In this document: positions 3,919 to 63,966 of the stretch, piece after piece
Layout: the number at the start of each line of letters is the position of its first letter
How positions within the stretch are numbered: the stretch's first letter is position 1
From: Candidatus Poribacteria bacterium
GTDB taxonomy: Bacteria; Poribacteria; WGA-4E; WGA-3G
Reading direction: 5' to 3'
Assembly (NCBI GenBank): GCA_022821965.1
Contig: JAJECN010000037.1
Span: forward strand, 145,656-209,655
DNA: 64,000 nt
Notes under the pieces: model-generated
Seen by the model: the letters and a program-made list of their open reading frames with translations, nothing else
The model's database searches: none
What the model was told of the DNA's origin: nothing
Made by a program: the position numbers and the translations under genes

Positions 3919-5430
3919 TTAATTCCCTAAATCGTACAACTCTCCATATTTTGTTTGGAGATATGCCATATAGGGTTCAATCGACAGAGGACTTCCGGTC
4001 GCACGTTCAACGATTTCCGGTGCCGTATACTTCGACCCGTGTTGATAAAGATTCGCCTTTAACCAATCGTGGAGTGTATCGAACTCACCCTTCTCAATTT
4101 CAGACGGAATTTCAGGACGCGCTTCGCTTGCAGCCGAGAAGAACTGTGCCCCCAAGATATTACCTAACGTATAGCCCTGAAATGAACCACCAATCAACCC
4201 AAAATACCAATGCACATCTTGCAAAACACCGTCTTTGTCGTCCGGTGGCACAATGCCGAAATCCGCTTCAAATCGTTCGCGCCACGCATCCGGTAAATCT
4301 TGAATCTCCAGGTTGCCTTCTAAAAGTGCCAACTCGAAATCGAAACGCAACATAACGTGTAGATTGTAGGTGACTTCATCCGCATTTGTCCGAATGAGGG
4401 AGCGTTCGACTTTATTAATCGCTCGGTGAAATGTATCTAAGGAGACAGAACCGAGCTGCTCCGGAAAAACACCTTGAAGTTGCGGATAGAAGTGTTGCCA
4501 AAATCCTCGGCTGCGTCCAACGATATTCTCCCAAAGTCGTGATTGACTTTCATGCACACCGGATGAGGTGCCACCAGCAAGGGGTGTGCCTTCCAAATCC
4601 ATGCGGATGCCTTGTTCATACAACGCGTGTCCGGTTTCGTGCAGCGTGCTGAACAACGCATCGCCGAGGAAATCCTCCTTTGTACGGGTTGTGATCCTCA
4701 CGTCCCCGAGTGAGAACTTCGTCATAAACGGATGGTGCGTTTTATCCTGCCGTCCCCGATTCAGATCGTAACCAAATTTCTGGGCAACGTTCATACCGAA
4801 CGCCAGTTGTTTCTCTTCAGGAAAGTATTGGTGCAAACACGAATCGTCGGCGAGAGCCTGCGACGTGATAGCAGACACAACCGGAACAAGTTCTTGGCGC
4901 AGCGCGGCAAAGACGCTCCGAACATCCGCCGCTTTCATGCCGTAATCGCTGTATTCAATGAGCGGATCTGCGATGTGTTCGTATCCCGGAAAGAAGTCGG
5001 CAGCCTGTCGGCTATATTCCAATGTTTTCTCCAGGTAGGGACGCACCCGCTCAAAGTCGTTTGCCGGACGTGCTTCAGTCCACACTTGATAGGATTCCGA
5101 TGTATGGTTTGTTACCTCCGCCATGAATTCAGCGGGGATTTTCGTTGAGCGTTCGTAACTTCTACGCGTAACACGGAGGAAACTCGCATCGTCCGAATCG
5201 TAAGCGAGACTTTTTTCGTAAGGTTCTAAAGCGTCAAGCAGCCTTCCAATTTCTGGGTCTGTGAATTTTTCGTGCGATAACCGGCTCAGCGTAGCACTTT
5301 GACGGGCACGAGCAGCGGCACCGCCGGGTGGCATGTAGGTAGATTGATCCCAATAGAGCAGTCCAGCGGCGGACGATATATCATTCGCCTCAAGCAGGCG
5401 GGTTTTGAGTTCTTGAAATTTGGATTGCAC
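3919..5430 (-). CDS. Carboxypeptidase Taq-type metallopeptidase (M32 family)
   Basis: 503 aa. HETGHALYEQG contains the HEXXH zinc site in the M32 context, and the protein is colinear with M32 over its whole length. Confidence 0.9.
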   Translation of the reverse strand: MQSKFQELKTRLLEANDISSAAGLLYWDQSTYMPPGGAAARARQSATLSRLSHEKFTDPEIGRLLDALEPYEKSLAYDSDDASFLRVTRRSYERSTKIPAEFMAEVTNHTSESYQVWTEARPANDFERVRPYLEKTLEYSRQAADFFPGYEHIADPLIEYSDYGMKAADVRSVFAALRQELVPVVSAITSQALADDSCLHQYFPEEKQLAFGMNVAQKFGYDLNRGRQDKTHHPFMTKFSLGDVRITTRTKEDFLGDALFSTLHETGHALYEQGIRMDLEGTPLAGGTSSGVHESQSRLWENIVGRSRGFWQHFYPQLQGVFPEQLGSVSLDTFHRAINKVERSLIRTNADEVTYNLHVMLRFDFELALLEGNLEIQDLPDAWRERFEADFGIVPPDDKDGVLQDVHWYFGLIGGSFQGYTLGNILGAQFFSAASEARPEIPSEIEKGEFDTLHDWLKANLYQHGSKYTAPEIVERATGSPLSIEPYMAYLQTKYGELYDLGN

Positions 5431-5869
5431 AATATCTCCCCTATTCTATTGCGTTACAGTATATCTGGCGCGTGTATTTCCCGATAAAATCCGTTTCACA
5501 ATTCTAACACAATCGACTCCAAAAATCAATGGTGAATTATCAAAAGCGAAAACGTCCGATCCGCTTTATGAACGCGGGGGTTAAAAAACCACAAAAATCA
5601 AACACCACAGAAAACTACAGAATTTTCGGATCTCTCAAAATTGAGCGAAAACCCAAGCTGTGAGAGGGCTGAGAAGCGATTTTGGAAAAATTTCATGGCG
5701 GTTAAAATGGTCAAATTTCTGTGGTGAATTTGAGAGGTAATTCCGTACCTGAAGACGATAAAAGGCGAAGGTAGTAGCAACTTTGAAAGGCAATAAGACG
5801 GATATGTGAATTATAAATATACTATATGTTAACTTTCATAATGCGTATAGATATGAAAATTATTCAATG

Positions 5870-6116
5870 ATTTATACACCAACACAATGGCGAGGATACA
5901 TGAAGATTAAGCATTTAATCGGGTAATTTTTTCCGCTGTCCGGTGCGGTTGGAATGCAGATCGCATTTGGGCGAGTACGCCGCAAAACCGCACCTACCGG
6001 GCTTGGGAGAGCATAGAATTACCCAAATATTTTATTAAACTTCATCAATCCTCGCCAGCGGCGGTGGGATGTTGCTCTTTGACGAACTGTAAACATATTT
6101 TTAGATTTTACTATAA
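5870..6116 (+). repeat. MITE-like dispersed element, copy A, with a nested 154-nt palindromic segment
   Basis: ATTTATACACCAACAC..GGCGAGG [5896-6049] CCTCGCCAGCGGCGGTGGG...GAACTGTAAACATATTT..TACTATAA aligns base-for-base with the reverse complement of 40965-41063. The exception is the GGCGAGG/CCTCGCC hairpin loop, which is 7 nt in copy B and 154 nt here. Confidence 0.75.
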
Positions 6117-6152
6117 AATTCCGAATTTTGTCTTATTTTCGTAACAATTGCG

Positions 6153-6161
6153 TGCTATAAT
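6153..6161 (+). promoter_or_regulatory. Possible extended -10 (TGCTATAAT) upstream of pstS
   Basis: TGC + TATAAT lies about 20-35 nt upstream of the pstS start candidates. There is no good -35 and no recognisable Pho box. Confidence 0.3.
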
Positions 6162-6178
6162 TTAGGTTAGAATTTAGT

Positions 6179-7114
6179 ATGAGAGGTAGATTGATGCGAA
6201 TAAGCGGTCGGGTCGGGTACACGACTACATGCTTCCTTGTCGTCTTGACATGCAGCTTGGTTATAATCGGTTGTTCACCTAAGGATGATGCAAGCGTTGC
6301 AAAGACAGAAGGAACACAATTCACCATCAAAAATAAAGGCTCGGATACGATGGTGAATTTGGCACAAGCATGGGCAGAAAAATACACGGGAATCAGTAGC
6401 ACAGCATCAGTAGAGGTGTCAGGTGGAGGTTCTGGTACAGGTGTCGCGGCACTCATCAATGGCACGGTAGACATTGCGAACTGTAGTCGCCAAATCAAAC
6501 CGAAAGAGTTAGAACTCGCGACGCAAAACACCGGTAAAACCCCACAAGAATTTATTGTCGGCTACGATGCCCTTGCAGTCTATGTTCATCAAGACACCCC
6601 CATCGACAAAATTACAATTACGCAACTCGCCGAAATTTATGGCGAGAACGGCACAATAACCAAATGGAGCGACCTCGGTATCTCGCATAGCGACTGCCCA
6701 AGCGACAAGATTATTCGTATCAGTCGTCAATCTAATTCCGGCACTTATTTCTACTTTCGGGAGGCACTTCTCGGCAAAAGCCGTGATTTTGGCATCGGTT
6801 CTTTGGATCTACACGGTTCTAAGGATGTCGTAGAAGTTGTTGGAAGGACCCCATGTGCTATCGGCTATAGCGGAATGGGGTATGCAACTTCCCATGTAAA
6901 AATGTTAGAGGTTGCCGCTGATTCGGATTCGCCTTATTACCCGCCGAATCTTGAAAATGTCCTTGCCAAAACCTATCCTATCGCGCGTCCCTTGTACATG
7001 TATTCCCTCGGTGAACCTACAGGAGAAGTTAAGAGGTACCTCGACTGGATTTTGTCCGCAGAAGGGCAAAAGATCGTTGAGAAACTCGGCTTTGTACCGT
7101 TAGAAAGTAAGTAA
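6179..7114 (+). CDS. pstS: Phosphate ABC transporter substrate-binding lipoprotein PstS
   Basis: PBP-like fold motifs GSDTMVNLAQAW and GGGSGTG, plus a lipobox IIGC. The true start is probably ATG 6194, preceded by GAGAGG at 6181-6186. Confidence 0.9.
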   Translation: MRGRLMRISGRVGYTTTCFLVVLTCSLVIIGCSPKDDASVAKTEGTQFTIKNKGSDTMVNLAQAWAEKYTGISSTASVEVSGGGSGTGVAALINGTVDIANCSRQIKPKELELATQNTGKTPQEFIVGYDALAVYVHQDTPIDKITITQLAEIYGENGTITKWSDLGISHSDCPSDKIIRISRQSNSGTYFYFREALLGKSRDFGIGSLDLHGSKDVVEVVGRTPCAIGYSGMGYATSHVKMLEVAADSDSPYYPPNLENVLAKTYPIARPLYMYSLGEPTGEVKRYLDWILSAEGQKIVEKLGFVPLESK

Positions 7115-7122
7115 CAACAAAT

Positions 7123-8031
7123 ATGAACATCCTACGCAAAAAAAGCACGGCGAATCTGCCGTTTTCCGAGACCGCGATTGAATTGTTTATCCGCCTATGT
7201 GGCATTAGCTCAATCATTTTTGTATTTGGTATCTTCTTCTTCGTGTTCCGGGAGGGAGCCGGTTTCCTTTTCGGTGGTTTAGATCTCGGACAGTTTCTAA
7301 CAAGCGTAGAGTGGCAACCAACTTCACTGAACAATAAACGATATGGTGCCTTCGCTTTGATTGTCGGGACCTTTAGCGTCACCGTCTTAGCGATGTGTAT
7401 CGCTGTCCCATTTGGACTTGGGGCAGCAATCTTTGTATCGGAGTTCTGTAGCCCAAAACTGAGAGAAGCTTTTAAGATCATCATCGAATTGCTCGCCGCC
7501 ATCCCTTCTGTTGTGTGGGGATTCATCGGATTGACCTTGATGAATCAATTGATTATCACAGTGTTCAAAGCTCCAATTGGTTTAACAATGCTCAATGGTG
7601 GCATCATGTTGGCATTAATGAGTGTGCCTATCATCGTCTCTATAGCGGAAGACGCGCTAAAAGCCGTACCAGATTCCTATCGTGAAGCGGCGGAAGCACT
7701 CGGCGCAACCCGGTGGCAGGTAACCTACCGCGTGCTTCTCCCCGCGGCAAAAAATGGACTATTGGCAGCAGTATTGCTCGGTGCCGCACGTTCTATCGGT
7801 GAAACGATGGCGGTTCTTATGGCAACAGGACACTCCGTGAACATTCCATCAGGACCTCTCTCTTGGATTCGCACACTTACAGCGACAATCGCCGCCGAAT
7901 TAGGCGAAGTCGCGAGAGGCGATGAACACTATCAAGTCCTCTTTATTATCGGTATTCTGCTTTTCACCATCACGTTTGTGGTGAACCTCATTGCCGATTT
8001 AGTGATTAAAGGTATCCGTCAAGAGCAATAA
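7123..8031 (+). CDS. pstC: Phosphate ABC transporter permease PstC
   Basis: 302 aa, multi-TM. EAA-type loop EAAEALGATRWQV. Sits immediately after pstS. Confidence 0.9.
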   Translation: MNILRKKSTANLPFSETAIELFIRLCGISSIIFVFGIFFFVFREGAGFLFGGLDLGQFLTSVEWQPTSLNNKRYGAFALIVGTFSVTVLAMCIAVPFGLGAAIFVSEFCSPKLREAFKIIIELLAAIPSVVWGFIGLTLMNQLIITVFKAPIGLTMLNGGIMLALMSVPIIVSIAEDALKAVPDSYREAAEALGATRWQVTYRVLLPAAKNGLLAAVLLGAARSIGETMAVLMATGHSVNIPSGPLSWIRTLTATIAAELGEVARGDEHYQVLFIIGILLFTITFVVNLIADLVIKGIRQEQ

Positions 8032-8057
8032 TATTAATTTAAGGATAACACGGAAAC

Positions 8058-8975
8058 ATGAACACCGATATGCAGGCATCACCGCAAACAATGTTCACCG
8101 AAACAGAAATCGGTAAACAGAAGCGCTGGATAGAGAACGGCATGCGTATTTTCTTCCTCGTGATGACGAGTCTGATGATTCTTCCGCTGCTTCTCATTAT
8201 CGGCTATCTCTTTTATAAGGCACTGCCGGTTCTCTCTTTCGAGTTTCTATTTACAAATCCGAAGGATAATATGCGAGCGGGTGGACTCTGGGCACCCTTC
8301 TTGGGTACCATCTATTTGGTAGTGGTTTCCTTATTAGTATCGGCACCCATCGGCGTGTTCGCAGCGGTGTATCTTAATGAGTACGCCCGTGAGAATTGGT
8401 TCACGCGTCTCACGAATTTAGCCGTTGTAAACCTTGCAGGCGTGCCGAGTATCGTTCATGCCTTGTTCGGTGTCGGGGCATTCGTGCTCTTTGCGGGTTT
8501 AGGTGAATCGATCTTAGCAGCCTCGCTCACATTGGCAATCATGACGCTTCCGGTAATTATCGCCAGCACAACGGAGGCACTCAAAGCCGTACCTATGTCT
8601 TTCCGAGAGGCATGTTGGAATCTTGGGGCGACCCGATGGCAAACGATTCGGCGCATCGTTATCCCAAACTCGATTAGCGGCATTTTGACGGGTGTTATAT
8701 TACAGGTATCGCGAGCAGCAGGTGAAACAGCACCTATTATGTTCACGGGCGCTGTCTTTTATAAAGCTATTGCAGAAGGAAACCTTTTTGCCTATAATAT
8801 AACAGAACAGTGTATGGCACTATCGCTGCACCTCTTTACAATCTCAACACAGGTCCCCGATGTTACAGAAGGCGTTCCGTACGGGACCGCAATTGTCCTT
8901 GTAGGCAGTGTTTTACTCGTCAATGCAGCAGCGATTGTGCTAAGGGTGTATCTCAGAACTCGGAAGAAGTGGTAG
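8058..8975 (+). CDS. pstA: Phosphate ABC transporter permease PstA
   Basis: 305 aa, multi-TM. REACWNLGATRWQTIRRIVIP and SRAAGETAPI are PstA-type motifs. Confidence 0.9.
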   Translation: MNTDMQASPQTMFTETEIGKQKRWIENGMRIFFLVMTSLMILPLLLIIGYLFYKALPVLSFEFLFTNPKDNMRAGGLWAPFLGTIYLVVVSLLVSAPIGVFAAVYLNEYARENWFTRLTNLAVVNLAGVPSIVHALFGVGAFVLFAGLGESILAASLTLAIMTLPVIIASTTEALKAVPMSFREACWNLGATRWQTIRRIVIPNSISGILTGVILQVSRAAGETAPIMFTGAVFYKAIAEGNLFAYNITEQCMALSLHLFTISTQVPDVTEGVPYGTAIVLVGSVLLVNAAAIVLRVYLRTRKKW

Positions 8976-8978
8976 AGT

Positions 8979-9078
8979 GGTTATCAGTTGTCAGTTGTCA
9001 GTTGTCAGTTAAAGAGACTTGTGGCAGGCAGCGTAATGATAAAGGACCACAATATCCCCGACTAATGACTGACAATTC
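8979..9078. repeat. Composite heptad-arm palindromic element, copy 2
   Basis: Left arm 8979-9010 is GGTTATCA(GTTGTCA)x3GTT, followed by AAAGAG at 9011-9016. The right arm GACTAATGACTGACAATTC (9060-9078) contains the channel start codon. Translation of the left arm (QLSVVSCQLSV) produces the spurious N-terminal extension of ORF 8810..9838. Confidence 0.8.
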
Positions 9079-9838
9079 TAAAAACATGAATAAAGACAGA
9101 TTACGCACGATCATTGAAGGGAATATCTGCAGCGGTCTCATTCAGTTTCTGATTCTTGCTTCCGCTGTCGTTTTTGTGGTGGAATCTGATAGTGAAGACC
9201 CACACGCACTTCACTTTATTGTTGTGGATGGGATGTTTTTTGTCCTATTTTCGATAGAATACATCCTGCGCGTCTACATTGAACCGAGAAAACGGGATTT
9301 CATTTTCAGTTTCTACGGCATAATAGATCTGCTTGCTATTTTACCCTCCTTGTTTCTGCTGCCGGGGTTCCGTGTTCTTCGGATATTACGGTTCCTACGA
9401 ATTTTCAGAATCTTCAAAGCGACCCGATTTATTCTTGCAGTTGATCGATTGACTGAAGCACTCAGCGAAATCCGGCGAGAACTCTTGGCACTGGTTATTC
9501 TGTCATTGATGTTAGTCTATCTCGCTGCATGTGGTATCCACTATTTTGAAAAAGATGCGCAACCTGAAGATTTCGGCTCCATCTTCGATTCCATGTGGTG
9601 GGCTATCGTGACACTAACAACAGTCGGTTACGGAGATGTCTTCCCGAAAACCGCAGGTGGGAAGACCTTCACAGCACTTGTCACTCTTGTTGGTGTAGGA
9701 CTCATTGCGATTCCATCCGGGCTGTTAGCCTCAGCTTTGACGGAGGCACGGGTGGAACGCGAACAAATAGAGAAAGAAGAAAAAAACGCAGAAAATCAAT
9801 CCATGGAAGGCAATGACGACCCCCATGCAAACGAATAG
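9065..9838 (+). CDS. Voltage-sensor-containing K+ channel (Kv/KvAP-like ion transport protein)
   Basis: S4-like helix FRVLRILRFLRIFRIFKATRF with a basic residue every third position. Selectivity filter TLTTVGYGD. About six hydrophobic segments. Start taken at ATG 9065, in frame with ORF 8810..9838. Confidence 0.85.
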   Translation: MTDNSKNMNKDRLRTIIEGNICSGLIQFLILASAVVFVVESDSEDPHALHFIVVDGMFFVLFSIEYILRVYIEPRKRDFIFSFYGIIDLLAILPSLFLLPGFRVLRILRFLRIFRIFKATRFILAVDRLTEALSEIRRELLALVILSLMLVYLAACGIHYFEKDAQPEDFGSIFDSMWWAIVTLTTVGYGDVFPKTAGGKTFTALVTLVGVGLIAIPSGLLASALTEARVEREQIEKEEKNAENQSMEGNDDPHANE

Positions 9839-10610
9839 CGACAACGGTTCGCAAAACACGCCTGTAATTGAGATTAGTGACTTGAAGGTGCGCTATGGCG
9901 ATAGTCCAGCCTTGAACGGTATCTCATTTGATGTCTACCAAAATGAGATTCTCGGTATCATCGGTCCCGCGCAGTCTGGTAAGACGACGCTTCTGAAAGT
10001 TATCAACAGGACCCTTGAATTGACACCCGATACAACTGTAGAAGGTTCCGTAAAACTGGATGGTGTGGACATCAGGACAATTGGTGATGTATACGGCTTA
10101 CGCCGACGTATCGGTATGGTGCTCCCTTTACCAGTCGGGCTGCCACTTTCCATATACGATAACGTTGCCTTCGCCCCTCGAACTGCGGGAATTCGAGCGA
10201 AATCGGAGCTGGATGAAATCGTTGAGCGATGCCTGCAGCAAGCGGCACTCTGGGACGAAGTAAAAGACCGATTAGATTCGCTTGGCACCAAATTATCAGG
10301 AGGACAACAGCAACGTTTGACAATCGCTCGTGCGCTTTCGCATCAACCGGAGATTCTCTGTCTCGACGAATTTTCTATTGCTGTCGATCCTGTTACAACA
10401 ATGCGCATTGAAGAGGTACTAAAAACGTTACAGACAGAAATGACGATTTTGCTCGTCACGAACTTAGTGCAACAGGCGAAACGATTGGCAAACCGCACTG
10501 CTTTTTTTCTCAACGGCGATCTCATTGAAATTGACACAACAGATGTAATTTTTTCCGAAAATCCATCAAACCAAGCCACGTATGACTATGTAAACGGGAC
10601 ATTTGGGTAA
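9813..10610 (+). CDS. PstB-like ABC ATPase, paralogue 1 (Q-loop and H-loop degenerate)
   Basis: Walker A GPAQSGKT, canonical signature LSGGQQQRL and Walker B ILCLDE are present. The Q-loop Gln is absent (GMVLPLP) and the H-loop His is replaced (LLVTNLVQQA). The C-terminus ...YVNGTFG is PstB-like. Confidence 0.85.
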   Translation: MTTPMQTNSDNGSQNTPVIEISDLKVRYGDSPALNGISFDVYQNEILGIIGPAQSGKTTLLKVINRTLELTPDTTVEGSVKLDGVDIRTIGDVYGLRRRIGMVLPLPVGLPLSIYDNVAFAPRTAGIRAKSELDEIVERCLQQAALWDEVKDRLDSLGTKLSGGQQQRLTIARALSHQPEILCLDEFSIAVDPVTTMRIEEVLKTLQTEMTILLVTNLVQQAKRLANRTAFFLNGDLIEIDTTDVIFSENPSNQATYDYVNGTFG

Positions 10611-10624
10611 ATTGGCTATCAAAA

Positions 10625-11410
10625 ATGAACTCGCAAATTACTCTTATGAATTATAGTATTGAAGCTGAGAATCTTAACCTCTGGTATGGTGATTTTCAGG
10701 CACTCATTGATGTTAACGTGAAAATACCAGGCGGTCAGATAACGTCGCTTATTGGTCCCTCTGGATGTGGGAAATCAACGTTACTTCGCTGCTTTAACCG
10801 CGTCAATGAACGCTACGGTAACGTTACGACAAAGGGAAAAATTGAGGTTTTAGGAAAAAACATCTACGACGCAGATGTTTCTTTGCCGGAACTTCGGAAA
10901 GCTGTCGGTATGGTATTTCAGAGACCGAACCCGTTGCCGATTTCGGTTTACGAAAACATCCTATTCGGATTGCGTATTCACTCGCCAATCCGGAGTATGA
11001 CACGAACAGAATCGGATCAGATTGTTGAGGAGGCACTGACATCTGTTTTCCTCTGGGAGGACTTGAAAGATAACTTAAAGGTGCGAGCAACATCACTCCA
11101 ACTTGAACAGCAGCAGAAACTCTGTATCGCCCGCCTGTTACCGCTTAAACCGAAAATTATTCTGATGGATGAACCCTGCTCAGCGTTAGATGCAAAAGGC
11201 ACAGGGGCAGTTGAAGAATTAATGGAAATCCTTGCGGGGACGTATACATTTCTAATCGTGACACATAACATGGCACAAGCGCGCCGCGTCAGCAAAGAGT
11301 GTATCTTCATGTTCCTCGGTGAACTGATTGAACACAGAGAAACGCAAGCACTGTTTGAAGACCCGCAACACGAGAAAACCGAGGATTACGTGCAGATGCG
11401 ATACGGGTAA
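10625..11410 (+). CDS. pstB: PstB phosphate-import ATPase, paralogue 2 (catalytic motifs intact, signature degenerate)
   Basis: Walker A GPSGCGKS, Q-loop VGMVFQRPNP, Walker B IILMDEP, D-loop SALD and H-loop IVTHNMAQA are all intact. The ABC signature reads LQLEQQQKL instead of LSGGQQQRL. Confidence 0.9.
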   Translation: MNSQITLMNYSIEAENLNLWYGDFQALIDVNVKIPGGQITSLIGPSGCGKSTLLRCFNRVNERYGNVTTKGKIEVLGKNIYDADVSLPELRKAVGMVFQRPNPLPISVYENILFGLRIHSPIRSMTRTESDQIVEEALTSVFLWEDLKDNLKVRATSLQLEQQQKLCIARLLPLKPKIILMDEPCSALDAKGTGAVEELMEILAGTYTFLIVTHNMAQARRVSKECIFMFLGELIEHRETQALFEDPQHEKTEDYVQMRYG

Positions 11411-11433
11411 GAATAGCGATCAGCCAAGAGATC

Positions 11434-11506
11434 GTTTGTCAGTTAGAAACGCCTGCAACCGCCACAAGGGGTTCTGACAACTAAAAGCGCAGCGCCCTGA
11501 TAACTA
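11434..11506. repeat. Short heptad-type palindromic element, copy 3
   Basis: GTTTGTCAGTTAG at 11434-11446 faces CTGACAACTA at 11474-11483 and CTGATAACTA at 11497-11506. Confidence 0.6.
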
Positions 11507-11510
11507 TATC

Positions 11511-12335
11511 ATGAATTCCTTGATGACACGTCCAAAACTCAGAAAAAAAATTATTTTGCTGAGTATTACTGTTATAATAGAGATTGTCGCGCTTATTTTC
11601 TTTTGGAATGCCCTGAAAAAAACAGATGTAACGAATGGACAAGCGTCGCCAGCATTGGGCACTTCAGGCGGATTACCGAACCTGCTCGGCGATCTCAATC
11701 TCATTCTACCCATCAGTTTTTTAGTTATTTTGCTTGGGATCGCGTGTGCCTTTTACGTAGAAGAATGGCTTTCAGCGACAAATTGGGTGCGGCGTTTCAT
11801 CGAAAGTCAGGTCGCCTTTTTGACGGGCATCCCTTCACTTTTGTATGGACTTTTGGCGGTCGCTGTTTTCTTCGGCTACGCTGGCGTTTTCAAAGCGACT
11901 CTTCAGAATGCGGAAGGATCCGCTTTAGCAGGAACGCCTTTTCAGCGTAACACCGCGTTATTTTACACGGAGACGTTAATCTTTATTTTGACCGTAATGC
12001 CAGTTGCTATCAAGACGACGCAGACAGCACTCCGCTCAGTGGAAACACCAATCCGTGAATCCGCTTATGCGTTAGGTGCCACCCAATGGCAAGTTTTAAC
12101 GAAACAGGTTGTGCCACGTGCTTTTCCACGGATGCTTGCGGGAGGGTGTAGGGCAATGGCGCGTGCATTCGCCGCGGCTGCATTGCTCGTTGGTATTTAT
12201 GCATGGAGTCATACAATGGAACTCAGAGGGTTCCCCGACAGATTCATGCTGTTTTTAGGCGGGGCACTGTTATTGAGTAATGCCTCCAGTTTCCTTACGG
12301 AAATATATGTCCCTGCTTCAACACAACACAATTGA
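11511..12335 (+). CDS. Second, divergent PstA-like ABC permease
   Basis: 274 aa, multi-TM. FYVEEWLSATNWVRRFIESQVAFLTGIPSLLYGL and RESAYALGATQWQVLTKQVVP match the PstA layout but are strongly diverged. Confidence 0.7.
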   Translation: MNSLMTRPKLRKKIILLSITVIIEIVALIFFWNALKKTDVTNGQASPALGTSGGLPNLLGDLNLILPISFLVILLGIACAFYVEEWLSATNWVRRFIESQVAFLTGIPSLLYGLLAVAVFFGYAGVFKATLQNAEGSALAGTPFQRNTALFYTETLIFILTVMPVAIKTTQTALRSVETPIRESAYALGATQWQVLTKQVVPRAFPRMLAGGCRAMARAFAAAALLVGIYAWSHTMELRGFPDRFMLFLGGALLLSNASSFLTEIYVPASTQHN

Positions 12336-13144
12336 CTCGGAGACGCGAGCCTAACTTTCTTACGGTACCAGTGATGCAAACCGAAAAAGAGCAATCCATC
12401 TTGAGTATCCGTGACTTAAGTGTATGGTACGGTGATAATCAAATCCTGAAGTCTCTCTCGTTTGAGGTTCAGCAGGGACAGGTGACTGCGCTTATCGGAC
12501 CTACGAACTGCGGTAAAAGCGCGCTTGTGCGGTGCCTCAATCGTTTAAATGACTTTACACCGGATTTCAGGTTCACCGGTGAAATACTTTTTAAGGGCAG
12601 CGACATGTATGCTGAAAAGACAGACACCGCTGCTATTCGGAAACAGATTGGGATGGTCTTCCGAAAACCGAGACCGTTTCAGTGTTCCATCTATGAAAAT
12701 GTGGCGTATGGTGCTCGGATTTCAGGCATAAGCCAATCTTCACAACTGGATGACATCGTTCAGAAGAACCTTCAAAAAACGTGCCTCTGGGATGAGGTTG
12801 AATCTATTTTGGACGAAACACCGGAACAGCTTTCTACAGGACAGCAGCAACTGCTCTGTATTGCGCGTGCCTTAGCGGTTGAACCAGACATTCTAATACT
12901 TGATGAACCGTGTGGTGAACTCGATCCGATTGAGACCGTCAAAATTGAAACACTCGTCCGGGATCTCACAAAGGACTACACGCTCATCTTTGCCACCAAC
13001 AAAAGAAGGCAAGCCGCCCGTATTTCTGATGCTGCAGGGTTTCTCTACTGCGGTGAATTAATTGAATTTGGAATGACGGAAAGGATTTTTACAAATCCTC
13101 AGGATACCAAAACAGAACAGTACGTGACAGGAAAATTAGGTTGA
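12332..13144 (+). CDS. PstB-like ABC ATPase, paralogue 3 (Q-loop, H-loop and signature degenerate)
   Basis: Walker A GPTNCGKS and Walker B ILILDEP are present. Q-loop is VFRKPRP (Q to R), signature LSTGQQQLL, H-loop LIFATNKRRQA (no His). The TTG start at 12332 overlaps the upstream stop; ATG 12374 (MQTEKEQ...) is an alternative start. Confidence 0.85.
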   Translation: MTRRREPNFLTVPVMQTEKEQSILSIRDLSVWYGDNQILKSLSFEVQQGQVTALIGPTNCGKSALVRCLNRLNDFTPDFRFTGEILFKGSDMYAEKTDTAAIRKQIGMVFRKPRPFQCSIYENVAYGARISGISQSSQLDDIVQKNLQKTCLWDEVESILDETPEQLSTGQQQLLCIARALAVEPDILILDEPCGELDPIETVKIETLVRDLTKDYTLIFATNKRRQAARISDAAGFLYCGELIEFGMTERIFTNPQDTKTEQYVTGKLG

Positions 13145-13167
13145 GGACTGACAACCTGTGAAAAGAT

Positions 13168-13809
13168 ATGTTAGAACACGAAATCACGGGACTTCAGCAT
13201 AAACTCTTAGAAATGGCAGGGCTTGTGGAACAGATGCTGCGCCAAGCTATCGAATCTGTTTTAACACGGGATAACGAGTTAGCGCAGATCGTTGTTGCTA
13301 CAGATGATCAAATTGACCTACTTGAGAATGAAATCGAATCATCGTGCATCCAACTGATCGCGCTCCATCAGCCAGTAGCGACCGAACTCCGATTTCTAAC
13401 AACAGCGATGAAGGTGAACCACAACATCGAAAGAATAGCGGATAAAAGCGTTGCTATCGCCAAACGGAGCATTGAGTTGTCAGAACATCCACCGGTCAAA
13501 CCCTTCGTAGATTTGCCATACGCGGCACAAGTAATTCAGTCGATGGTAAAGGACGTGCTGGATGCCTTCGTCAATCGAGATGCCGAATATGCCCTAAAAA
13601 TTCGAGAGCGGGACAGTGAGGTTGATGAAATCTATGAAAAAATGCTGAATGAACTGCTGACTATTTTGAGCGAACACCCCAAACTTATCCAACCCGGTAT
13701 CAGCCTTCTGCTTCTCTTCCGACATTTGGAACGGATAGGCGACCTTGCGGCACACATCGGCGAAGAGGTTTATTACCTCGTCAAAGGCGATGTTATCCGA
13801 CATTCCTAA
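13168..13809 (+). CDS. phoU: Phosphate signalling complex protein PhoU
   Basis: 213 aa with two PhoU repeats carrying E/D-xxxD motifs (NHNIERIADKS and RHLERIGDLAAHI). Last gene of the pst cluster. Confidence 0.9.
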   Translation: MLEHEITGLQHKLLEMAGLVEQMLRQAIESVLTRDNELAQIVVATDDQIDLLENEIESSCIQLIALHQPVATELRFLTTAMKVNHNIERIADKSVAIAKRSIELSEHPPVKPFVDLPYAAQVIQSMVKDVLDAFVNRDAEYALKIRERDSEVDEIYEKMLNELLTILSEHPKLIQPGISLLLLFRHLERIGDLAAHIGEEVYYLVKGDVIRHS

Positions 13810-13979
13810 ATTGCTATAACATCTCCCACCAATAGTGAGTCCGTAGGTTGGGTTGAACGGGACTGATCCAAAACGCCATAGAGAAAATAGACCTTCATAG
13901 ACCTCAAGAAGACTAAAATCACCAAAGCATGAGTGAAACCCAACCTAATGTCTAAATCAAACCCATGTTAGTAGTACAT

Positions 13980-14045: not shown

Positions 14046-14825
14046 CTACGCTGGAAGCATCTCAACTGCTCTAAAGAAATCGGCGTTTGACGCACTAAAC
14101 CCGTACTGCTGTTCCACCTCCCGAATAGCGATCTCTGTTGTGAACAGATTATCATACGTATCGGGAAACTCAACCCCCGTCGTGGCATCACGGAAAAGGA
14201 TGATATTATAGCCATAGCGTGCCATCGAACGGATACCGTAATCCCTGCCCAACACACACCAATTTGTTGCGAAACCAGCGAAGAGCAGATGCAAGATATG
14301 CCGCTCTTCCAAGAGTTCATGCAACTGCTGCCCCGTTGCAATGACAAAATCTTCCGGTTTCACATCAATCGCGGGTGAGACAGCCAGTTGTGATGCGAGT
14401 TTGTTCCAATGGATATCGATACTGGGTGGTTGACTACGGGGACCGCGATAAACGGCGTAGTCCCCCTCGCGGCTTCGGAAATCGGAAGGTGGCCATGCCG
14501 AAGGCGTAGACGGCTCAGGCGGTTTGTGCCGTTCAAGTTGCGGATATTGCGCTGCTACCGATGGAGAAGGGGCATGAACGATTGTCAAACCCGCTTCCCG
14601 TGCGGCATTTATCACAGGCACAACGCACTCCTTTGTTATCTGTGCCGCACGTTCTATCCAGCTTTCGATGAAATGCACGTTCCACAAATCAACGAGGACC
14701 AAAGCGGTCTCATCAACCGGTAACGGCATCTCAAACTCACGTCGGATAAAAGCCGTTTCACGGCATGGTACGTCTGCCGGCGTGCTATCCTGAAAATATC
14801 GGACGCGTAAATTCAGTTCTTTCAC
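14046..14825 (-). CDS. Isochorismatase-family cysteine hydrolase
   Basis: ALVLVDLWN and FAGFATNWCVLGRDYGIRSMARYGYNIILFRDATTG match the isochorismatase-like fold, including the catalytic Cys context. Confidence 0.7.
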   Translation of the reverse strand: MKELNLRVRYFQDSTPADVPCRETAFIRREFEMPLPVDETALVLVDLWNVHFIESWIERAAQITKECVVPVINAAREAGLTIVHAPSPSVAAQYPQLERHKPPEPSTPSAWPPSDFRSREGDYAVYRGPRSQPPSIDIHWNKLASQLAVSPAIDVKPEDFVIATGQQLHELLEERHILHLLFAGFATNWCVLGRDYGIRSMARYGYNIILFRDATTGVEFPDTYDNLFTTEIAIREVEQQYGFSASNADFFRAVEMLPA

Positions 14826-16969
14826 TTTGGCTCCTGAAATAGCGATTCGTCAAGTTCAGCGTTCATTGTGACGCTGCTTATATGGGTTTCCGTGAACTGT
14901 TCACCCTCTACATTCTGGACGAGATGATACGGGATTTTGACCCCGTCTACATCGCGATAATCGTCCATGAGGGATTCCTTATTCAGTGTAACGCCCTGTT
15001 CCGTCTCGCGGAATTCCATTTTCACTATATAGTGCGTCTCTTCACTGATGAAGACTTTGAGCATTTCACCCGAAGGCTGTTTGACAAGAACTATGGCAGT
15101 GGGTTTTCCCATTACCTCTTCTGTCCCAGTGTATTGGACAGAGCTGTCCTGCATAAGATTCACAAGCAGCCAAACCGGCTCTCTGAAAATTCCATCTTTC
15201 AAGGAAGCCGTCATTTCCGGCGGTAAGGGTTGCGGTCCCATAGGGGTCATCGCAAATCCAGAAGTCCCATCGAAGGCAACACTCATTTCTCCTTGGGGCA
15301 TCTTGATATCCTGCCGGAGTTTGTTCGGATAGACCTGGTATATCTTTACATCAAGGTTCATCGGTCCCATCGGTGAATTAGCTGCAGTGCGTCCCTCCAC
15401 AACAATATTTTTCACCGCCTGCAATTTCTCAAGTCCACCGTGTGCGTCAACTGCCATCGCGATGATCTCTTTCGCTTTCACCATGTCGTCTTCACTCGCT
15501 TCAGGCATCGGTTCCGCGGGGGGTGGAGGTGCCGGCTGCTCTATCTCAATCTCGTTGACCTTTCCGAATTCATCAAGTGCCCGGTCAAAATTGGCTTTGT
15601 TTCCGACAGTGACAATCGTGAGCGCATCTGGATCGAGATATTTCTGCGCGACCGCCTGCACATCCGCTGCTGTGACCTTAGCAATGTTATCGGTAAAGGT
15701 TTCAAGAAAACCTGGTGCGTAACCGCGATAGTCAAGCATCATCTGTTGAAAAGCGATTTGCGAACTGCTCTCAAATCCAAAGACAAACGAATTGATGAGC
15801 GAGTCTTTGGTGCGCTGCAGCTCGGCTTCCGGTACAGGTTCATCTCGGAGTCCCTTGACGACACCAATGATGAGCGAAATCGCCTCTGCCGTTTTCTCGG
15901 TACGGGTCTGTGAATAAGCAAACCATTCACCCGGATTTGTGTAGTAACTTGTTTGCATGATGCTGCCTACCATGTAGGCAAGACCGTGTTTCTCGCGCAC
16001 TTCCCGCATAAGGCGAGACGTGAACCCGCCTTCACCGAGTATATCGTTCATGACCCGAAGTGCAAAGAAGTCGGGGAAATCAGGTGTGCGCTTGATGCCG
16101 AAATGCCCGATTAACATCACTGACTGCGGAAGATTTTTGAAAATATAATTAACGGACGGTTTCGGCGTAGGATCCACGGTTGGAACATCAGGAAACGCAA
16201 TATCTGCGGGTTCCCAGCCCTTAAACACTTTTTCCAGTTGTGCGATCAAGGTTTCCGTTTCAAAGTCACCGGTAATCGCGAGCATCATGTTGTCGGGATG
16301 GTAATACTTCGCATGAAAGGCTTTGAGATCATCAACAGTGATACTTTCTATGCCCTCAATTTCGGTATACCACCCGAAGGGATGATCGGTTCCGTAAAGC
16401 AGTGCGGAGAAGTTGCGCCACGCAAGTTGAATAGGGTCATCATTGCGGCGACGGATACGTTCGACCGACTGCTGCTTGCGGAGTTCCAATTTGTCTTCAC
16501 GAAATGCGGGATTCCTGAGTACATCCGCAAAGATTTCCAATCCTTTCTCGATGTCTTCTGCGAGTGTTGAGAGATTAATGGTCCCATACTCACGGGACAT
16601 GCCGACTTCAACAGAAGCCGCCATTGATTCTAATTCCTCGTTCAGTGCGTCCGGTTCACGCGATACCGTGCCACCTGTTCGCATAACGGTTGCGAATATT
16701 GATGATAAACCCACCTTATCCGCAGGATCGTAGATGTTCCCGGTCTTAATCAAGCCGCTGATGTTGAAAAGTGGTAACTCATGATCCTCAAGGAGGTAGA
16801 GCTTCATCCCATTTGAGAGCATCCGTTTCTCTGGAACGGGCGGTTTAAACTCAATCGGTTCAAAGGTGAGTTCTTCGTGTGGTTTCGCGAGTGTAGACGG
16901 AATACCCCACACGATAAGGCAGGCAATCAGCGTCGCGATGCCCAATCCGGTAAAGGTTTGTTTCTTCAT
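14822..16969 (-). CDS. M16-family peptidase-like protein (no HXXEH) with a C-terminal LolA-like extension
   Basis: 715 aa. The N-terminal ~460 aa are colinear with M16 peptidases but lack the zinc motif. The last ~230 aa form an additional beta-rich domain. The gene overlaps both neighbours by 1-4 nt, suggesting an operon. Confidence 0.8.
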   Translation of the reverse strand: MKKQTFTGLGIATLIACLIVWGIPSTLAKPHEELTFEPIEFKPPVPEKRMLSNGMKLYLLEDHELPLFNISGLIKTGNIYDPADKVGLSSIFATVMRTGGTVSREPDALNEELESMAASVEVGMSREYGTINLSTLAEDIEKGLEIFADVLRNPAFREDKLELRKQQSVERIRRRNDDPIQLAWRNFSALLYGTDHPFGWYTEIEGIESITVDDLKAFHAKYYHPDNMMLAITGDFETETLIAQLEKVFKGWEPADIAFPDVPTVDPTPKPSVNYIFKNLPQSVMLIGHFGIKRTPDFPDFFALRVMNDILGEGGFTSRLMREVREKHGLAYMVGSIMQTSYYTNPGEWFAYSQTRTEKTAEAISLIIGVVKGLRDEPVPEAELQRTKDSLINSFVFGFESSSQIAFQQMMLDYRGYAPGFLETFTDNIAKVTAADVQAVAQKYLDPDALTIVTVGNKANFDRALDEFGKVNEIEIEQPAPPPPAEPMPEASEDDMVKAKEIIAMAVDAHGGLEKLQAVKNIVVEGRTAANSPMGPMNLDVKIYQVYPNKLRQDIKMPQGEMSVAFDGTSGFAMTPMGPQPLPPEMTASLKDGIFREPVWLLVNLMQDSSVQYTGTEEVMGKPTAIVLVKQPSGEMLKVFISEETHYIVKMEFRETEQGVTLNKESLMDDYRDVDGVKIPYHLVQNVEGEQFTETHISSVTMNAELDESLFQEPK

Positions 16970-49919: not shown

Positions 49920-52325
49920 TCATAGGTTCTCTCCCTCAGTGAGAATGAGTCTCTGGTTGACAGATAGGTTCCGATGCGTATCCACTTGACCTGAGGGCCA
50001 GACGATTTCGAGGGTGTCAACTTTTGTGTGTGTTCCGAGTCCGATCTCAAGTGGCAGACTGTTGGTTGACCCGAAACCACATCCGCCGCTGACTTCTCTG
50101 TAAATTATATCATCCCGAATGCGTAAAGTCACTTTAGCACCGATACCATCCCGATTACTTTTGACCCCGACCAGTTTCAAATTAACCCAGTTGTTCCGTG
50201 TCCCCGTATTTTGATAGAAAAGATTGTGCCACTGGTCGCCGATAAATGCTCCACCGACGGGCACGTAGATATCGACATCCCCGTCCGTATCAATATCACC
50301 GAAGGTTACGCCGTGTCCCTTCCCAACGTTGCCCAAACCCAGAGCGACAGTCGCATCGGTAAAAGTGCCATCGCCGTTGTTGCGGAAGAGTGCGTCGCGT
50401 TCGAGTCGTCCCATCTGTGGTGCCCCGGTAGCGAGATAGATATCGAGATAACCGTCGCTATTGATGTCGCCGAAGTTTGCTCCCATCGCTCCAAAGGCGT
50501 GGTAGAGTCCTGACTCACGGGTGACATCCGTAAAGGTGCCGTCGCCGTTATTACGATAAAGCACCTGCCGATCACTGTCGTGTGGTGCACTCCCTGTGAT
50601 TTGACCTGCGATGAAGGCTTGAAAAGAGCCTGAGTTTGAAATGAAGATGTCCAGATCGGCATCGTTATCCACATCGAGAAAGAAGGTGACAAACGCATCC
50701 GTAACGGGAAGATTCATACCGGTCGTTGGAGTGACATCAGTGAACGTGCCATCACCGTTATTACGATAAAGGACGTTGGACTGTCCGAAATTGACGACAT
50801 GCAGATCAATATACCCGTCTTTATCGTAATCCCCCCAAGCCGTTCCGAGAGAGTTTCCAGTATCTGCGACACCGGCTGCTTCTGCGGTATTCGTGAAAGT
50901 GCCATTGCCGTTGTTACGGTATAAGACGTTCGCAGCACCATCGCCAATAACACCGTCCGCAACGTAGAGGTCAAGGTAGCCGTCATTGTCATAATCTGCC
51001 CAAGCAGCACAGAAACTGCACTGCGGGTCCGCAACACCTGCAGTGTTCGTGACATCGGTGAATGTGCCATTACCGTTGTTATGATAGAGCGTATTTTCCG
51101 CTGCCCCCGACCAACCCCCACGCGTGATGTAGAGGTCGAGGTAGCCATCGTTATCGTAATCAGCGAAGAGTGAACCCCAGCCACCTCTTGGATCGGCAAT
51201 GCCTGCTTCATCCGCGGTGTTGGTGAACGTCCCATCGCCGTTATTGCGGTAAAGTGCGTGGGGTTGGTACGTCCCGACAGCAACGATATCCAAATCACCA
51301 TCATTATCGTAATCGCCCCAAGCACTCCCGCGTCCACCATCGACCTTGTTCATTTCTAAGTCAGGTGCAGTATCTGTGAAATAGTTTTCAGTTTTCAGTT
51401 GTCGGTTATCAGTTAAGAGGTTTTCTGGTGAAGTTATATCCTCTTGATGATTGCTGACTGCTGACTGCTGACTGCTGATTGCTGACTGCTGACTGCTGAC
51501 CGCCATTTGGATTTTGAATTCCTCCGGTAAGTCTGCTGGATAGCCACCGATTTGACTATATGCTGTCCATAAGTTCCATAAGGTTTCGGGATCACGAGGT
51601 TTGAGCTGGAGTGACGCTTTGAAATTCTCAACGGCTTTTTCAGGAGCACCGTGTCGGAGATGATAGACCCCGAGATAATAATACGCACCAGAATGACGGC
51701 GGTAATTTTGGATGATATTTTCAAATCGCTCAGCGGCTTTATCGGCTTCACCGAGGCGGAATTCAGCTAAGCCGAGTTGGAGCATCGCTTCAAGATTATT
51801 CGGTTCAAGTTCCAGCACCTTTTCAAACTGCCGTTTGGATGCTGAGAGATCGGGGACGAGCATCTGTTGCGGCGCACCTAAAAAATAGCCGAGTCTGATA
51901 CGTGCGTCGGTATCATCAGGGTTTACCTCTAACGCACTGGTGAGGGCGGCGGTGGAATCAGAAAAGCGTTGTTGATAACTGAAAACCTGCGCTAATGTTA
52001 GATACGCTCTCGAAAGTTTATCCTTCGCTTCCGGTACCTGTTTAAGCAGGTTTATCAGCGTTTGTAACGTTTCTTCGGCGCGCGAAAACTTCTGCTGTCG
52101 GATATAAGTACGTGCGAGCTGCATGCGTGCCTCGTGGGCATTCGTATCAATTCGTAGGCACGCCTGAAACGCTTCTTCCGCTTCGACGAAGCTGTTTCTG
52201 TCTAAAGCGTCCATGCCCCTCTGATAGTGCGCGGTGACTTGCGGGTTTCCGTCATCTTGGGGTGAATCTGTATTACAGCCGATGCTAATGAGGAAGATAA
52301 GGCAAATAGAAAAAGTTGTTCGCAT
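49920..52325 (-). CDS. Lipoprotein: N-terminal TPR domain, repeat-encoded Q/S linker, FG-GAP/ASPIC (CRTAC1-like) module; paralogue 2
   Basis: A single 801-aa ORF. Signal plus Cys (LISIGC), ~270 aa of TPR, then AVSSQQSAISSQQSAVSNHQ...DNRQLKTEN encoded by the heptad element. The FG-GAP module then starts at ...YFTD, the same point as the mature N-terminus of the two paralogues. Confidence 0.7.
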   Translation of the reverse strand: MRTTFSICLIFLISIGCNTDSPQDDGNPQVTAHYQRGMDALDRNSFVEAEEAFQACLRIDTNAHEARMQLARTYIRQQKFSRAEETLQTLINLLKQVPEAKDKLSRAYLTLAQVFSYQQRFSDSTAALTSALEVNPDDTDARIRLGYFLGAPQQMLVPDLSASKRQFEKVLELEPNNLEAMLQLGLAEFRLGEADKAAERFENIIQNYRRHSGAYYYLGVYHLRHGAPEKAVENFKASLQLKPRDPETLWNLWTAYSQIGGYPADLPEEFKIQMAVSSQQSAISSQQSAVSNHQEDITSPENLLTDNRQLKTENYFTDTAPDLEMNKVDGGRGSAWGDYDNDGDLDIVAVGTYQPHALYRNNGDGTFTNTADEAGIADPRGGWGSLFADYDNDGYLDLYITRGGWSGAAENTLYHNNGNGTFTDVTNTAGVADPQCSFCAAWADYDNDGYLDLYVADGVIGDGAANVLYRNNGNGTFTNTAEAAGVADTGNSLGTAWGDYDKDGYIDLHVVNFGQSNVLYRNNGDGTFTDVTPTTGMNLPVTDAFVTFFLDVDNDADLDIFISNSGSFQAFIAGQITGSAPHDSDRQVLYRNNGDGTFTDVTRESGLYHAFGAMGANFGDINSDGYLDIYLATGAPQMGRLERDALFRNNGDGTFTDATVALGLGNVGKGHGVTFGDIDTDGDVDIYVPVGGAFIGDQWHNLFYQNTGTRNNWVNLKLVGVKSNRDGIGAKVTLRIRDDIIYREVSGGCGFGSTNSLPLEIGLGTHTKVDTLEIVWPSGQVDTHRNLSVNQRLILTEGENL
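51383..51500. repeat. Composite heptad-arm element, copy 5, lying in-frame inside a CDS
   Basis: AGTTTTCAGTTTTCAGTTGTCGGTTATCAGTT, AAGAGG (51415-51420) ... CCTCTT (51440-51445), then (TGCTGAC/TGCTGAT)x7 up to 51500. Confidence 0.8.
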
Positions 52326-56540: not shown

Positions 56541-56643
56541 TATTAGTTATCAGTTAATAGTTGTCAGTTATCAGTAGAAATGGACATCAGCAGTTAGCAA
56601 TCAGCCGAAAGCCATCTGACTGACCACTGAAAACTGAAGACTG
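56541..56643. repeat. Composite heptad-arm element, copy 6
   Basis: TATTAGTTATCAGTTAATAGTTGTCAGTTATCAGT ... CTGACTGACCACTGAAAACTGAAGACTG. It fills the whole spacer between two minus-strand genes. Confidence 0.75.
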
Positions 56644-63847: not shown

Positions 63848-63966
63848 AGTAGTTATCAGTTGTCAGTACGGTTTTTCTGCGAAAAACCTTTCAGTTTTCA
63901 GAAAGAGGCTTCGGGAGTATCCCACCCCTCTTGTAACCGATAACCGATAACTGAAAACCGAAAACC
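63848..63966. repeat. Composite heptad-arm element, copy 9
   Basis: AGTAGTTATCAGTTGTCAGTACGG...TTTCAGTTTTCAG AAAGAGG...CCTCTT (63927-63932), then GTAACCGATAACCGATAACTGAAAACCGAAAACC. Confidence 0.8.

Follow-up and report, generated by a model that had tools for sequence, protein, structure and literature searches.

The question raised by the locus described here is how a single phosphate transport operon might make use of three different copies of its ATPase subunit, PstB, when the deviations in their ATP-binding and hydrolysis motifs are complementary. The operon lies at positions 6179-13809 on the plus strand of a 64,000-nucleotide (nt) stretch of contig JAJECN010000037.1 from a Candidatus Poribacteria bacterium, a sponge symbiont (assembly GCA_022821965.1); this stretch is referred to below as the window. 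An initial annotation of the window had proposed that PstB2 forms obligate heterodimers with PstB1 and/or PstB3, each with one competent and one degenerate ATP site. We consider it reasonably likely, short of high confidence, that two modules are combined in the operon, an importer driven by a PstB1/PstB2 heterodimer and a regulatory remnant consisting of a diverged permease (PstA'), PstB3 and PhoU, with the pairing of subunits, the loss of catalysis and the regulatory role all predicted from comparative evidence. The nine co-directional genes, whose order agrees with that given in the initial annotation, were identified from open reading frames (ORFs), Pfam and NCBIfam matches and are as follows:

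6179..7114, plus strand: pstS, phosphate-binding lipoprotein (TIGR02136, 225 bits, cutoff 206.6; PBP_like_2)
7123..8031, plus strand: pstC, permease (TIGR02138, 270 bits, cutoff 196; R-x-x-G-E-T motif kept as AARSIGETMAV)
8058..8975, plus strand: pstA, permease (TIGR00974, 255 bits, cutoff 193; R-x-x-G-E-T motif kept as VSRAAGETAPI)
9065..9838, plus strand: potassium channel of the voltage-gated type with six transmembrane (TM) helices (within ORF 8810-9838; Ion_trans, Ion_trans_2)
9813..10610, plus strand: pstB1, alpha-type PstB (probable ATG at 9825, giving 261 amino acids)
10625..11410, plus strand: pstB2, beta-type PstB (catalytic motifs canonical, signature LQLEQ)
11511..12335, plus strand: pstA', diverged Pst-type permease of about six helices (TIGR00974, 99 bits; BPD_transp_1)
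12332..13144, plus strand: pstB3, degenerate PstB (probable ATG at 12374, giving 256 amino acids)
13168..13809, plus strand: phoU, phosphate-signalling regulator (TIGR02135, 202 bits, cutoff 130.25)

Consecutive genes overlap or are separated by no more than 100 nt, as had been noted, and the 3' end of the channel gene overlaps the 5' end of pstB1. Several gene starts probably need minor revision, since the N-termini of orthologues suggest positions of ~9065-9086 for the channel, 9825 for pstB1 and 12374 for pstB3, all shorter than the ORFs. With its start at 12374, pstB3 is separated from pstA' by 38 nt rather than overlapping it.

The ATPase motifs were read from alignments of each paralogue to E. 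coli PstB (PDB 9k3x chain C), and as these contained no gaps across the five motifs, a misalignment of the motifs was ruled out. PstB1 reads GPAQSGKTT, MVLPLP (Q-loop Gln to Pro), LSGGQQQR, LDEFSIAVD and VTNLV (H-loop His to Asn), and as such combines a canonical signature with the loss of two catalytic residues. In PstB2 (GPSGCGKST, MVFQRP, LQLEQQQK, MDEPCSALD, VTHNM) the catalytic set is canonical and the signature alone deviates. PstB3 reads GPTNCGKSA, MVFRKP (Gln to Arg), LSTGQQQL, LDEPCGELD and ATNKR (His to Asn). The Walker A Lys and the Walker B Asp-Glu are present in all three proteins alike, and each motif statement made in the initial annotation proved correct. The paralogues are ABC (ATP-binding cassette) ATPases by their matches to PF00005 (ABC_tran, E-values 4e-25 to 2.5e-27), and although their scores against TIGR00972 fall below the PstB equivalog cutoff of 343.2 bits (280.3 for PstB1, 313.7 for PstB2 and 326.4 for PstB3), this is still the top family for each. 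The poribacterial paralogues are 43-49% identical to E. coli PstB, and PstB1 and PstB2 are 34-37% identical to each other. Reference loci from many other phyla supplied 66 canonical PstB proteins, all of which keep the Walker A Lys, Q-loop Gln, Walker B Asp-Glu, D-loop Asp and H-loop His, with the signature LSGGQQQR in 65 and MSGGQQQR in one. The deviations of the three poribacterial proteins are therefore far outside the background variation.

Each ATP site of an ABC dimer takes its Walker A, Walker B, Q-loop and H-loop from one subunit and its signature from the partner (PMC12976172 for PstB; PMC7756269 for degenerate sites). By this rule the only consensus site that can be assembled from the poribacterial proteins combines the catalytic face of PstB2 with the signature of PstB1, and the reciprocal site, formed by the PstB1 face and the PstB2 signature, is degenerate on both halves. 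At the level of motifs, then, the catalytic deviations of PstB1 and the signature deviation of PstB2 fall within one and the same composite site.

The same arrangement was found in relatives. A profile scan with PstA' covering 185,579 species, at one genome each, identified orthologues in Poribacteria only, in the genomes of 12 species (loci L001-L012), and in all 12 loci the nine-gene order, including the potassium channel, is identical to that of the window. The window and these loci gave 13 orthologue sets. The PstB inventory covers the pst loci. In 13 of 13 sets PstB1 has the motifs MV[LQ]PLP, LSGGQQQR, DEFSIA[VI]D and VTNLV, and PstB2 has the signature LQLEQQQK. PstB3 is more variable, with MVFR.P (Asp in L012), LS[TIRN]GQ (LPTGQ once) and TNKR. 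In PstB1 of L001 (6372-7157) and L002 (6218-7003), and in 7 of 120 clusters of PstB1 homologues, MVQPLP occurs in place of MVLPLP, with the Gln one residue ahead of the Q-loop position.

Beyond Poribacteria, an exhaustive search with a PstB1 profile and a follow-up search from one of its matches identified a large group of PstB-like proteins, which we named alpha; their partners were named beta. All 120 PstB1 homologue clusters have the deviant PstB1 pattern. Of 120 alpha-type proteins, the Q-loop Gln is lost in every one, the H-loop His in 119 (118 Asn, 1 Ser), and the signature is LSGGQQQR in 118. The alpha proteins read GPAGSGKTS, MVFATP (Gln to Ala), LSGGQQQR, DEPCSGLD and VTNNT (His to Asn). 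The beta proteins have fully canonical catalytic motifs and deviant signatures (LSAEQ, LTSEQ, LPLEQ, LSLEE and LQLEM). Gene context was analysed for eight non-poribacterial loci, from Sorangium sp. So ce260 (CP150320.1), a Gemmatimonadaceae metagenome-assembled genome, GCA_031372565.1, GCA_963853555.1 and the metagenome contigs L081, L084, L085 and L089. In every complete locus among them pstS-pstC-pstA is followed by alpha and then beta, directly consecutive, and the retained parts of L081 and L085, contigs that are incomplete at one end, agree with this arrangement. With the window included, the alpha-then-beta order holds in 21 of 21 loci from several phyla. Within the stretches analysed (partial for L081 and L085), PstA', PstB3 and the potassium channel are absent from all eight non-poribacterial loci. 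Neighbour-joining trees with 100 bootstrap replicates, built with and without the motif columns masked, placed PstB1 with the alpha proteins of Sorangium, Gemmatimonadaceae and others (98/100; 96/100 masked) and PstB2 with the beta proteins (89/100; 68/100 masked). From these sequence comparisons, PstB1 and PstB2 are members of two old, separate and conserved PstB lineages, represented in Poribacteria, Myxococcota (Sorangium), Gemmatimonadota and uncultured lineages.

Some individual loci depart from the common layout in other respects. In L012 a lipoprotein-like ORF and a gene that by eye resembles the TnpB/IS605-OrfB type lie between pstB1 and pstB2 (4575-6989), which means that the two genes are not always directly adjacent or translationally coupled, and in L004 pstA and the channel gene are separated by a similar TnpB-like gene (3996-5219). 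The alpha/beta operon of Sorangium sp. So ce260 encodes a single fusion permease of 594 amino acids in place of separate PstC and PstA (L086 5220-7004, CP150320.1). In L084, which derives from an uncultured lineage, a 363-amino-acid protein in which PhoU is joined to a low-molecular-weight phosphatase domain (a weak match) is encoded between pstS and pstC (5142-6233) and phoB-phoR lie just upstream; this locus is on a long-read contig with several frameshifts in pstC, pstA and pstB. An acidobacterial locus (L074) has a second PstS-like gene (15014-16045) whose product is 50% identical to the PstS of the window, compared with no more than 30% for other non-poribacterial PstS proteins, a likeness that hints at horizontal movement of this type of PstS.

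Based on sequence logic, synteny and rate covariation (see below), PstB1 and PstB2 very probably pair as an obligate heterodimer in which one ATP site is consensus and the other is degenerate on both halves. That the association would be obligate is suggested by alpha and beta always being found as a neighbouring pair after pstSCA, even in loci without PstB3 and PstA', and the alpha signature, which is under extreme constraint, fits the logic known from heterodimeric exporters. In the mechanism we propose, PstS-PstC-PstA would be powered by this heterodimer, with PstB2 supplying the sole complete catalytic set and PstB1 the sole canonical LSGGQ, so that together they would make up one hydrolysing site. 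The second site, consisting of the PstB1 face without Gln and His and the LQLEQ of PstB2, presumably binds ATP without turnover, as in heterodimeric ABC exporters. The part of the initial annotation that paired PstB2 with PstB1 is thus upheld by their pairing in all 21 loci, the conservation of both lineages and the constraint on the alpha LSGGQ.

The origin of PstB3 is different, and it was here that the initial annotation, in treating PstB3 as an equivalent alternative partner of PstB2, found no support. Outside the 12 orthologous loci, PstB3 is nearest to the PstB of a canonical poribacterial locus (L075), a plain pstSCAB-phoU operon, with which it forms a clade in 84/100 replicates, rising to 97/100 with the motifs masked. 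A grouping of PstB3 with PstB1 was recovered in only 0-2 of 100 replicates, ruling out that PstB3 is a third member of the alpha lineage. Given this native origin, the loss of the Gln and His in PstB3 was independent of their loss in the alpha lineage. The closest relative of the window PhoU outside L001-L012, among the loci compared, is likewise the PhoU of L075 (65%); the protein itself is a clear PhoU, matched by the Pfam PhoU domain in two stretches in addition to TIGR02135.

The initial annotation was correct that PstA' is an additional, diverged PstA-like permease, but it is not a copy of the adjacent pstA: it scores ~100 bits against canonical PstA of other phyla, compared with 63 bits against the PstA of its own operon and 54-68 bits against PstA of alpha/beta operons, and tandem duplication of the operon pstA was ruled out on the first two of these values. 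Its TIGR00974 score of 99.4 bits (cutoff 193.45), with profile positions 14-231 of 272 matched, does not qualify it as a PstA. It is a type I ABC importer permease, given its PF00528 match (BPD_transp_1, 9.3e-13), its EAA coupling loop, nearly invariant in the family alignment (TTQ.ALRSV..P.RE..Y.LGA..WQV), and its Pst-type fold. The fold class, the only property for which the AlphaFold2 model was used (predicted local distance difference test score of 60, which is low), derives from six to seven helices with a best match to E. coli PstC/PstA. R218 of PstA', equivalent to the inorganic phosphate (Pi)-coordinating PstA R220 and PstC R237, is invariant in 18 sequences, and the adjacent G-E-T of R-x-x-G-E-T is replaced by A-A-A. 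The loss of the Glu was considered as evidence against transport and then dropped, as the corresponding residue in E. coli is PstA E224, mutation of which gave no transport phenotype (PMC12976172). Taken together, the PstA'-PstB3-PhoU set looks like the retained remnant of a native pstSCAB-phoU operon.

All nine genes are under purifying selection and none is decaying. Median ratios of nonsynonymous to synonymous substitution (dN/dS, Nei-Gojobori) were 0.03 for PstA, 0.04 for PstC and PstB2, 0.06 for PstB1 and PhoU, 0.08 for PstS, 0.10 for PstB3, 0.11 for the channel and 0.23 for PstA', and since these values remain within 0.03-0.23 and the ORFs are intact in 13 genomes, pseudogenes were ruled out. 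Two tiers of divergence were apparent across the 12 Poribacteria in amino acid identity to the window: PstC (90-98%) and PstA (89-97%), or 85-98% for PstC, PstA, PstB1 and PstB2 together, versus 59-80% for PstB3 and 33-66% for PstA', with PstS at 78-88%. PstB3 evolves at about twice the rate of PstB1 and PstB2, and PstB3 and PstA' are 2-8 times faster than the core subunits. Rate covariation, calculated as residual (partial) correlations over the 12 species, linked PstA with PstB2 (0.66) and PstB1 with PstB2 (0.50), and separately PstB3 with PhoU (0.72), PstA' with PhoU (0.53) and PstA' with PstB3 (0.38); the value for PstB2 and PstB3 was 0.05 and that for PstA' and PstC was 0.44. The native origin of PstB3, its variable signature, its doubled rate and its covariation with PhoU instead of PstB2 together argue against its being an equivalent partner of PstB2.

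We propose that an alpha/beta-type pstS-pstC-pstA-(channel)-pstB1-pstB2 set was placed before a native pstA-pstB-phoU, replacing the native pstS-pstC, and that the native pstA-pstB pair would then have been kept under relaxed but real constraint. With the Gln and His lost and the signature drifting, PstB3 would probably bind nucleotide without hydrolysing it, and, anchored at the membrane by PstA', it may have been kept for a regulatory or signalling role with PhoU. As judged from sequence, PstA' and PstB3 are probably a non-catalytic, nucleotide-binding regulatory module that acts with PhoU. In E. coli, PhoU binds both PstB and PhoR (Gardner et al. 2014, cited in PMC12976172).

Several observations weigh against parts of this two-module reading. 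In ABCC1, transport persisted when the consensus-site H-loop His was replaced by Asn or Gln, and mutations in the Q-loop had mild effects (PMC7756269); given this tolerance and the Walker A Lys and Walker B Asp-Glu kept in PstB1 and PstB3, loss of the Gln and His is no proof of inactivity, and the catalytic inactivity of these two proteins is a prediction from their motifs. Similarly, as PstA' keeps the Pi-coordinating Arg and the Glu it has lost is dispensable in E. coli, it could still transport. PstB3 also converges on the alpha type (Gln and His lost, Walker A GPAN.GK), which fits an alternative, alpha-like partner of PstB2. The rate covariation is weak evidence, because it comes from 12 related species in which the pairs are non-independent, and recombination between the two halves of the operon could mimic the pattern. 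Lastly, phoU directly follows the beta gene in Sorangium and L085, so that PhoU does not in general need an adaptor like PstB3.

An alternative, in line with the initial annotation, is that PstB2 is a shared catalytic subunit alternating between PstB1 and PstB3, with PstA' replacing PstA in a second form of the importer (e.g. PstC-PstA'-PstB2-PstB3) with different kinetics or regulation. Such an arrangement would account for PstB3 lacking the same two residues as PstB1 while keeping three signature residues (Ser, second Gly and Gln) in 12 of 13 loci, for the EAA loop and Pi-binding Arg of PstA', for its covariation with PstC (0.44), and for the purifying selection on pstA' and pstB3 and their matches in sponge metatranscriptome contigs. 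However, the third position of the PstB3 signature varies (T, I, R, N) and its Ser is a Pro in one species, whereas the alpha signature is essentially invariant; covariation of PstB2 with PstB3 is nil, against 0.50 with PstB1 and 0.72 for PstB3 with PhoU; PstB3 and PstA' diverge 2-8 times faster than the core; and alpha/beta operons elsewhere do without a third pair. On this balance we regard the alternating subunit as unlikely.

A different use of the same two proteins would be a complex of their own, (PstA')2(PstB3)2, acting independently of PstC and PstA as an ATP-gated, non-pumping phosphate sensor or channel-like transceptor. The two genes adjoin and their products share a native origin, similarly raised rates and some covariation (0.38), and a PstB3 homodimer would have two ATP sites that are predicted to be degenerate yet nucleotide-binding. 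We nonetheless judge this improbable, as the canonical Pst membrane domain is a PstC-PstA heterodimer to which each subunit contributes one Pi-binding Arg (PMC12976172) and the operon has no second PstC. Still less credible, to the point that we give it very little weight, is that the substitutions are neutral and every paralogue hydrolyses ATP as a homodimer or in any combination, the copies being redundant like the tandem pstB genes of Firmicutes. This would agree with the Walker A Lys and Walker B Asp-Glu of all three proteins, with the tolerance of ABCC1 to an H-loop Asn and with the partly overlapping roles of the tandem PstB paralogues of E. faecalis (PMC12096839), but in a PstB2 homodimer both signatures would be LQLEQ, with the Ser and the two Gly missing, the complementary deviations are fixed in two lineages across phyla while canonical PstB is invariant at these residues, and in the Firmicute pairs all motifs are canonical.

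The potassium channel gene is a constant part of the poribacterial operon, its position between pstA and pstB1 being kept in 12 of 12 loci. The protein has the features of a voltage-gated-type potassium channel, with matches to Ion_trans (PF00520, 1.5e-32) and Ion_trans_2 (PF07885, 1e-17), an S4 segment (RVLRILRFLRIFRIFK) with Arg at every third position and the filter TTVGYGD; its scores are below the NCBIfam equivalog cutoffs. In L004 (5980-6345) and L012 (3362-3718) an extra small ORF of 118-121 amino acids is located 3' of the channel gene. The L004 sequence, the one of the two that was read, is a pore-only potassium channel segment with two TM helices (TTIGYGD).

The operon is bounded on both sides by genes of opposite orientation:

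3919-5430, opposite to the pst unit: M32 carboxypeptidase gene (upstream boundary)
14046-14825, opposite to the pst unit: isochorismatase-family gene (downstream boundary)

Neither phoB nor phoR was found among the ten flanking genes scanned, from ~6 kb upstream to 11 kb downstream of the operon, and an Rfam scan of the window gave no match. A promoter/terminator scan gave no convincing internal terminator on the plus strand, although such a scan is uninformative for Poribacteria. In sponge metatranscriptomes, contigs from related populations cover the genes from pstS to phoU, pstA' and pstB3 among them; as these are contigs and carry-over of DNA is possible, we treat these matches as supportive only. 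The 64-kb window was also found nearly whole in a sponge metagenome run.

Repeats occur in and around the operon. A tandem heptanucleotide repeat, (CAGTTGT / CGGTTAT)n, is located at 7-37, 8981-9010, 51389-51412, 56558-56636 and 63850-63866, with 10 matches in the window versus 0.01 expected. It produces spikes of very high depth in related metagenome and metatranscriptome runs and so represents a family of short tandem repeats that is dispersed in these genomes. In addition, the region upstream of pstS (~5950-6120) is connected in contigs of other runs to position 13841, just downstream of phoU (~13841-13860), and depth is 10-100 times higher at 5800-6080. These findings suggest either dispersed repeat elements bordering the operon or genomes without the whole operon between them. 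The motif at 13841 has no other copy within the window.

Comparison with known systems helps to place the poribacterial operon. It shares with the canonical PstSCAB-PhoU system of E. coli (9k3s, 9k3x and 9k3y; PMC12976172) the same protein families, the order pstS-pstC-pstA-pstB-phoU and, in PstC and PstA, the Pi-binding Arg and the salt-bridge Glu. In contrast to the PstB homodimer of E. coli and its two consensus sites, Poribacteria have three non-equivalent PstB proteins, a third permease and a potassium channel inside the operon. The statement in the initial annotation that PstB is classically a homodimer holds for E. coli but overlooks Firmicutes, whose tandem PstB pairs (B. subtilis PstBA/PstBB, E. 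faecalis PstB1/PstB2; PMC12096839, PMC11466899) resemble the poribacterial pair in being two adjoining genes after pstCA, in having non-equivalent roles and in being presumed heterodimers, that of B. subtilis having been modelled as such (PMC11466899). They differ from it in that their motifs are canonical, whereas PstB1 and PstB2 are complementarily degenerate. The alpha/beta pairs of Sorangium, Gemmatimonadaceae and others are much closer, having the same lineages, the same complementary degeneracy and the same alpha-then-beta order after pstSCA, although they lack PstA', PstB3 and the channel, and their alpha proteins have a Q-loop Ala (MVFATP) instead of Pro and a D-loop SGLD instead of SIAVD.

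Among other ABC systems, the heterodimeric type I exporters (TM287/288, TmrAB, TAP1/2, BmrCD, ABCC; PMC7756269) likewise combine catalytic and signature deviations in one composite site and leave one consensus site. In these exporters, transmembrane and nucleotide-binding domains are fused in each half and the Walker B Glu is usually Asp, whereas the poribacterial Pst system, a type I importer that depends on a binding protein, has its nucleotide-binding subunits encoded by separate genes and retains the Walker B Glu, its losses being those of the Q-loop Gln and H-loop His. A degenerate ATP site in a bacterial importer is also known from the sugar systems RbsA and NupO of B. subtilis (PMC11466899), but these belong to another transporter class, carry both nucleotide-binding domains in one polypeptide and have lost the Walker A Lys or Walker B residues. 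In the full-text literature searched we found no description of a degenerate or asymmetric PstB and only passing mentions of pst genes in Poribacteria; within that literature, the alpha/beta PstB pair and the poribacterial operon with three nucleotide-binding subunits are undescribed.

We speculate further, in a proposal that is possible but on balance doubtful, that the operon is a split system in which the acquired alpha/beta single-site pump would carry out transport, and the native PstA-PstB pair would have become a catalytically dead, membrane-anchored pseudo-transporter that serves with PhoU as a signalling receptor for the phosphate or energy state, possibly coordinated with the co-transcribed potassium channel for charge balance. 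Single-site alpha/beta heterodimers would then represent a widespread and undescribed class of binding-protein-dependent importer.

Degenerate ATP sites, a central topic in work on ABC exporters, have hardly been considered for binding-protein-dependent importers with separate ATPase subunits, and PstSCAB is treated as a symmetric machine, including in a 2026 cryo-electron microscopy study. All of the deviant PstB proteins described here are currently annotated simply as phosphate ABC transporter ATP-binding protein. A natural and phylogenetically widespread Pst variant with one consensus site would allow the ATP requirement per phosphate and the role of a non-hydrolysing site in coupling or regulation to be tested, and, as it occurs in the culturable genus Sorangium, it is accessible to experiment. 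In Poribacteria, the presence of PstA' and PstB3 beside PhoU may represent a natural separation of Pst transport from Pst signalling, and as such would bear on a long-standing question about the Pho regulon.

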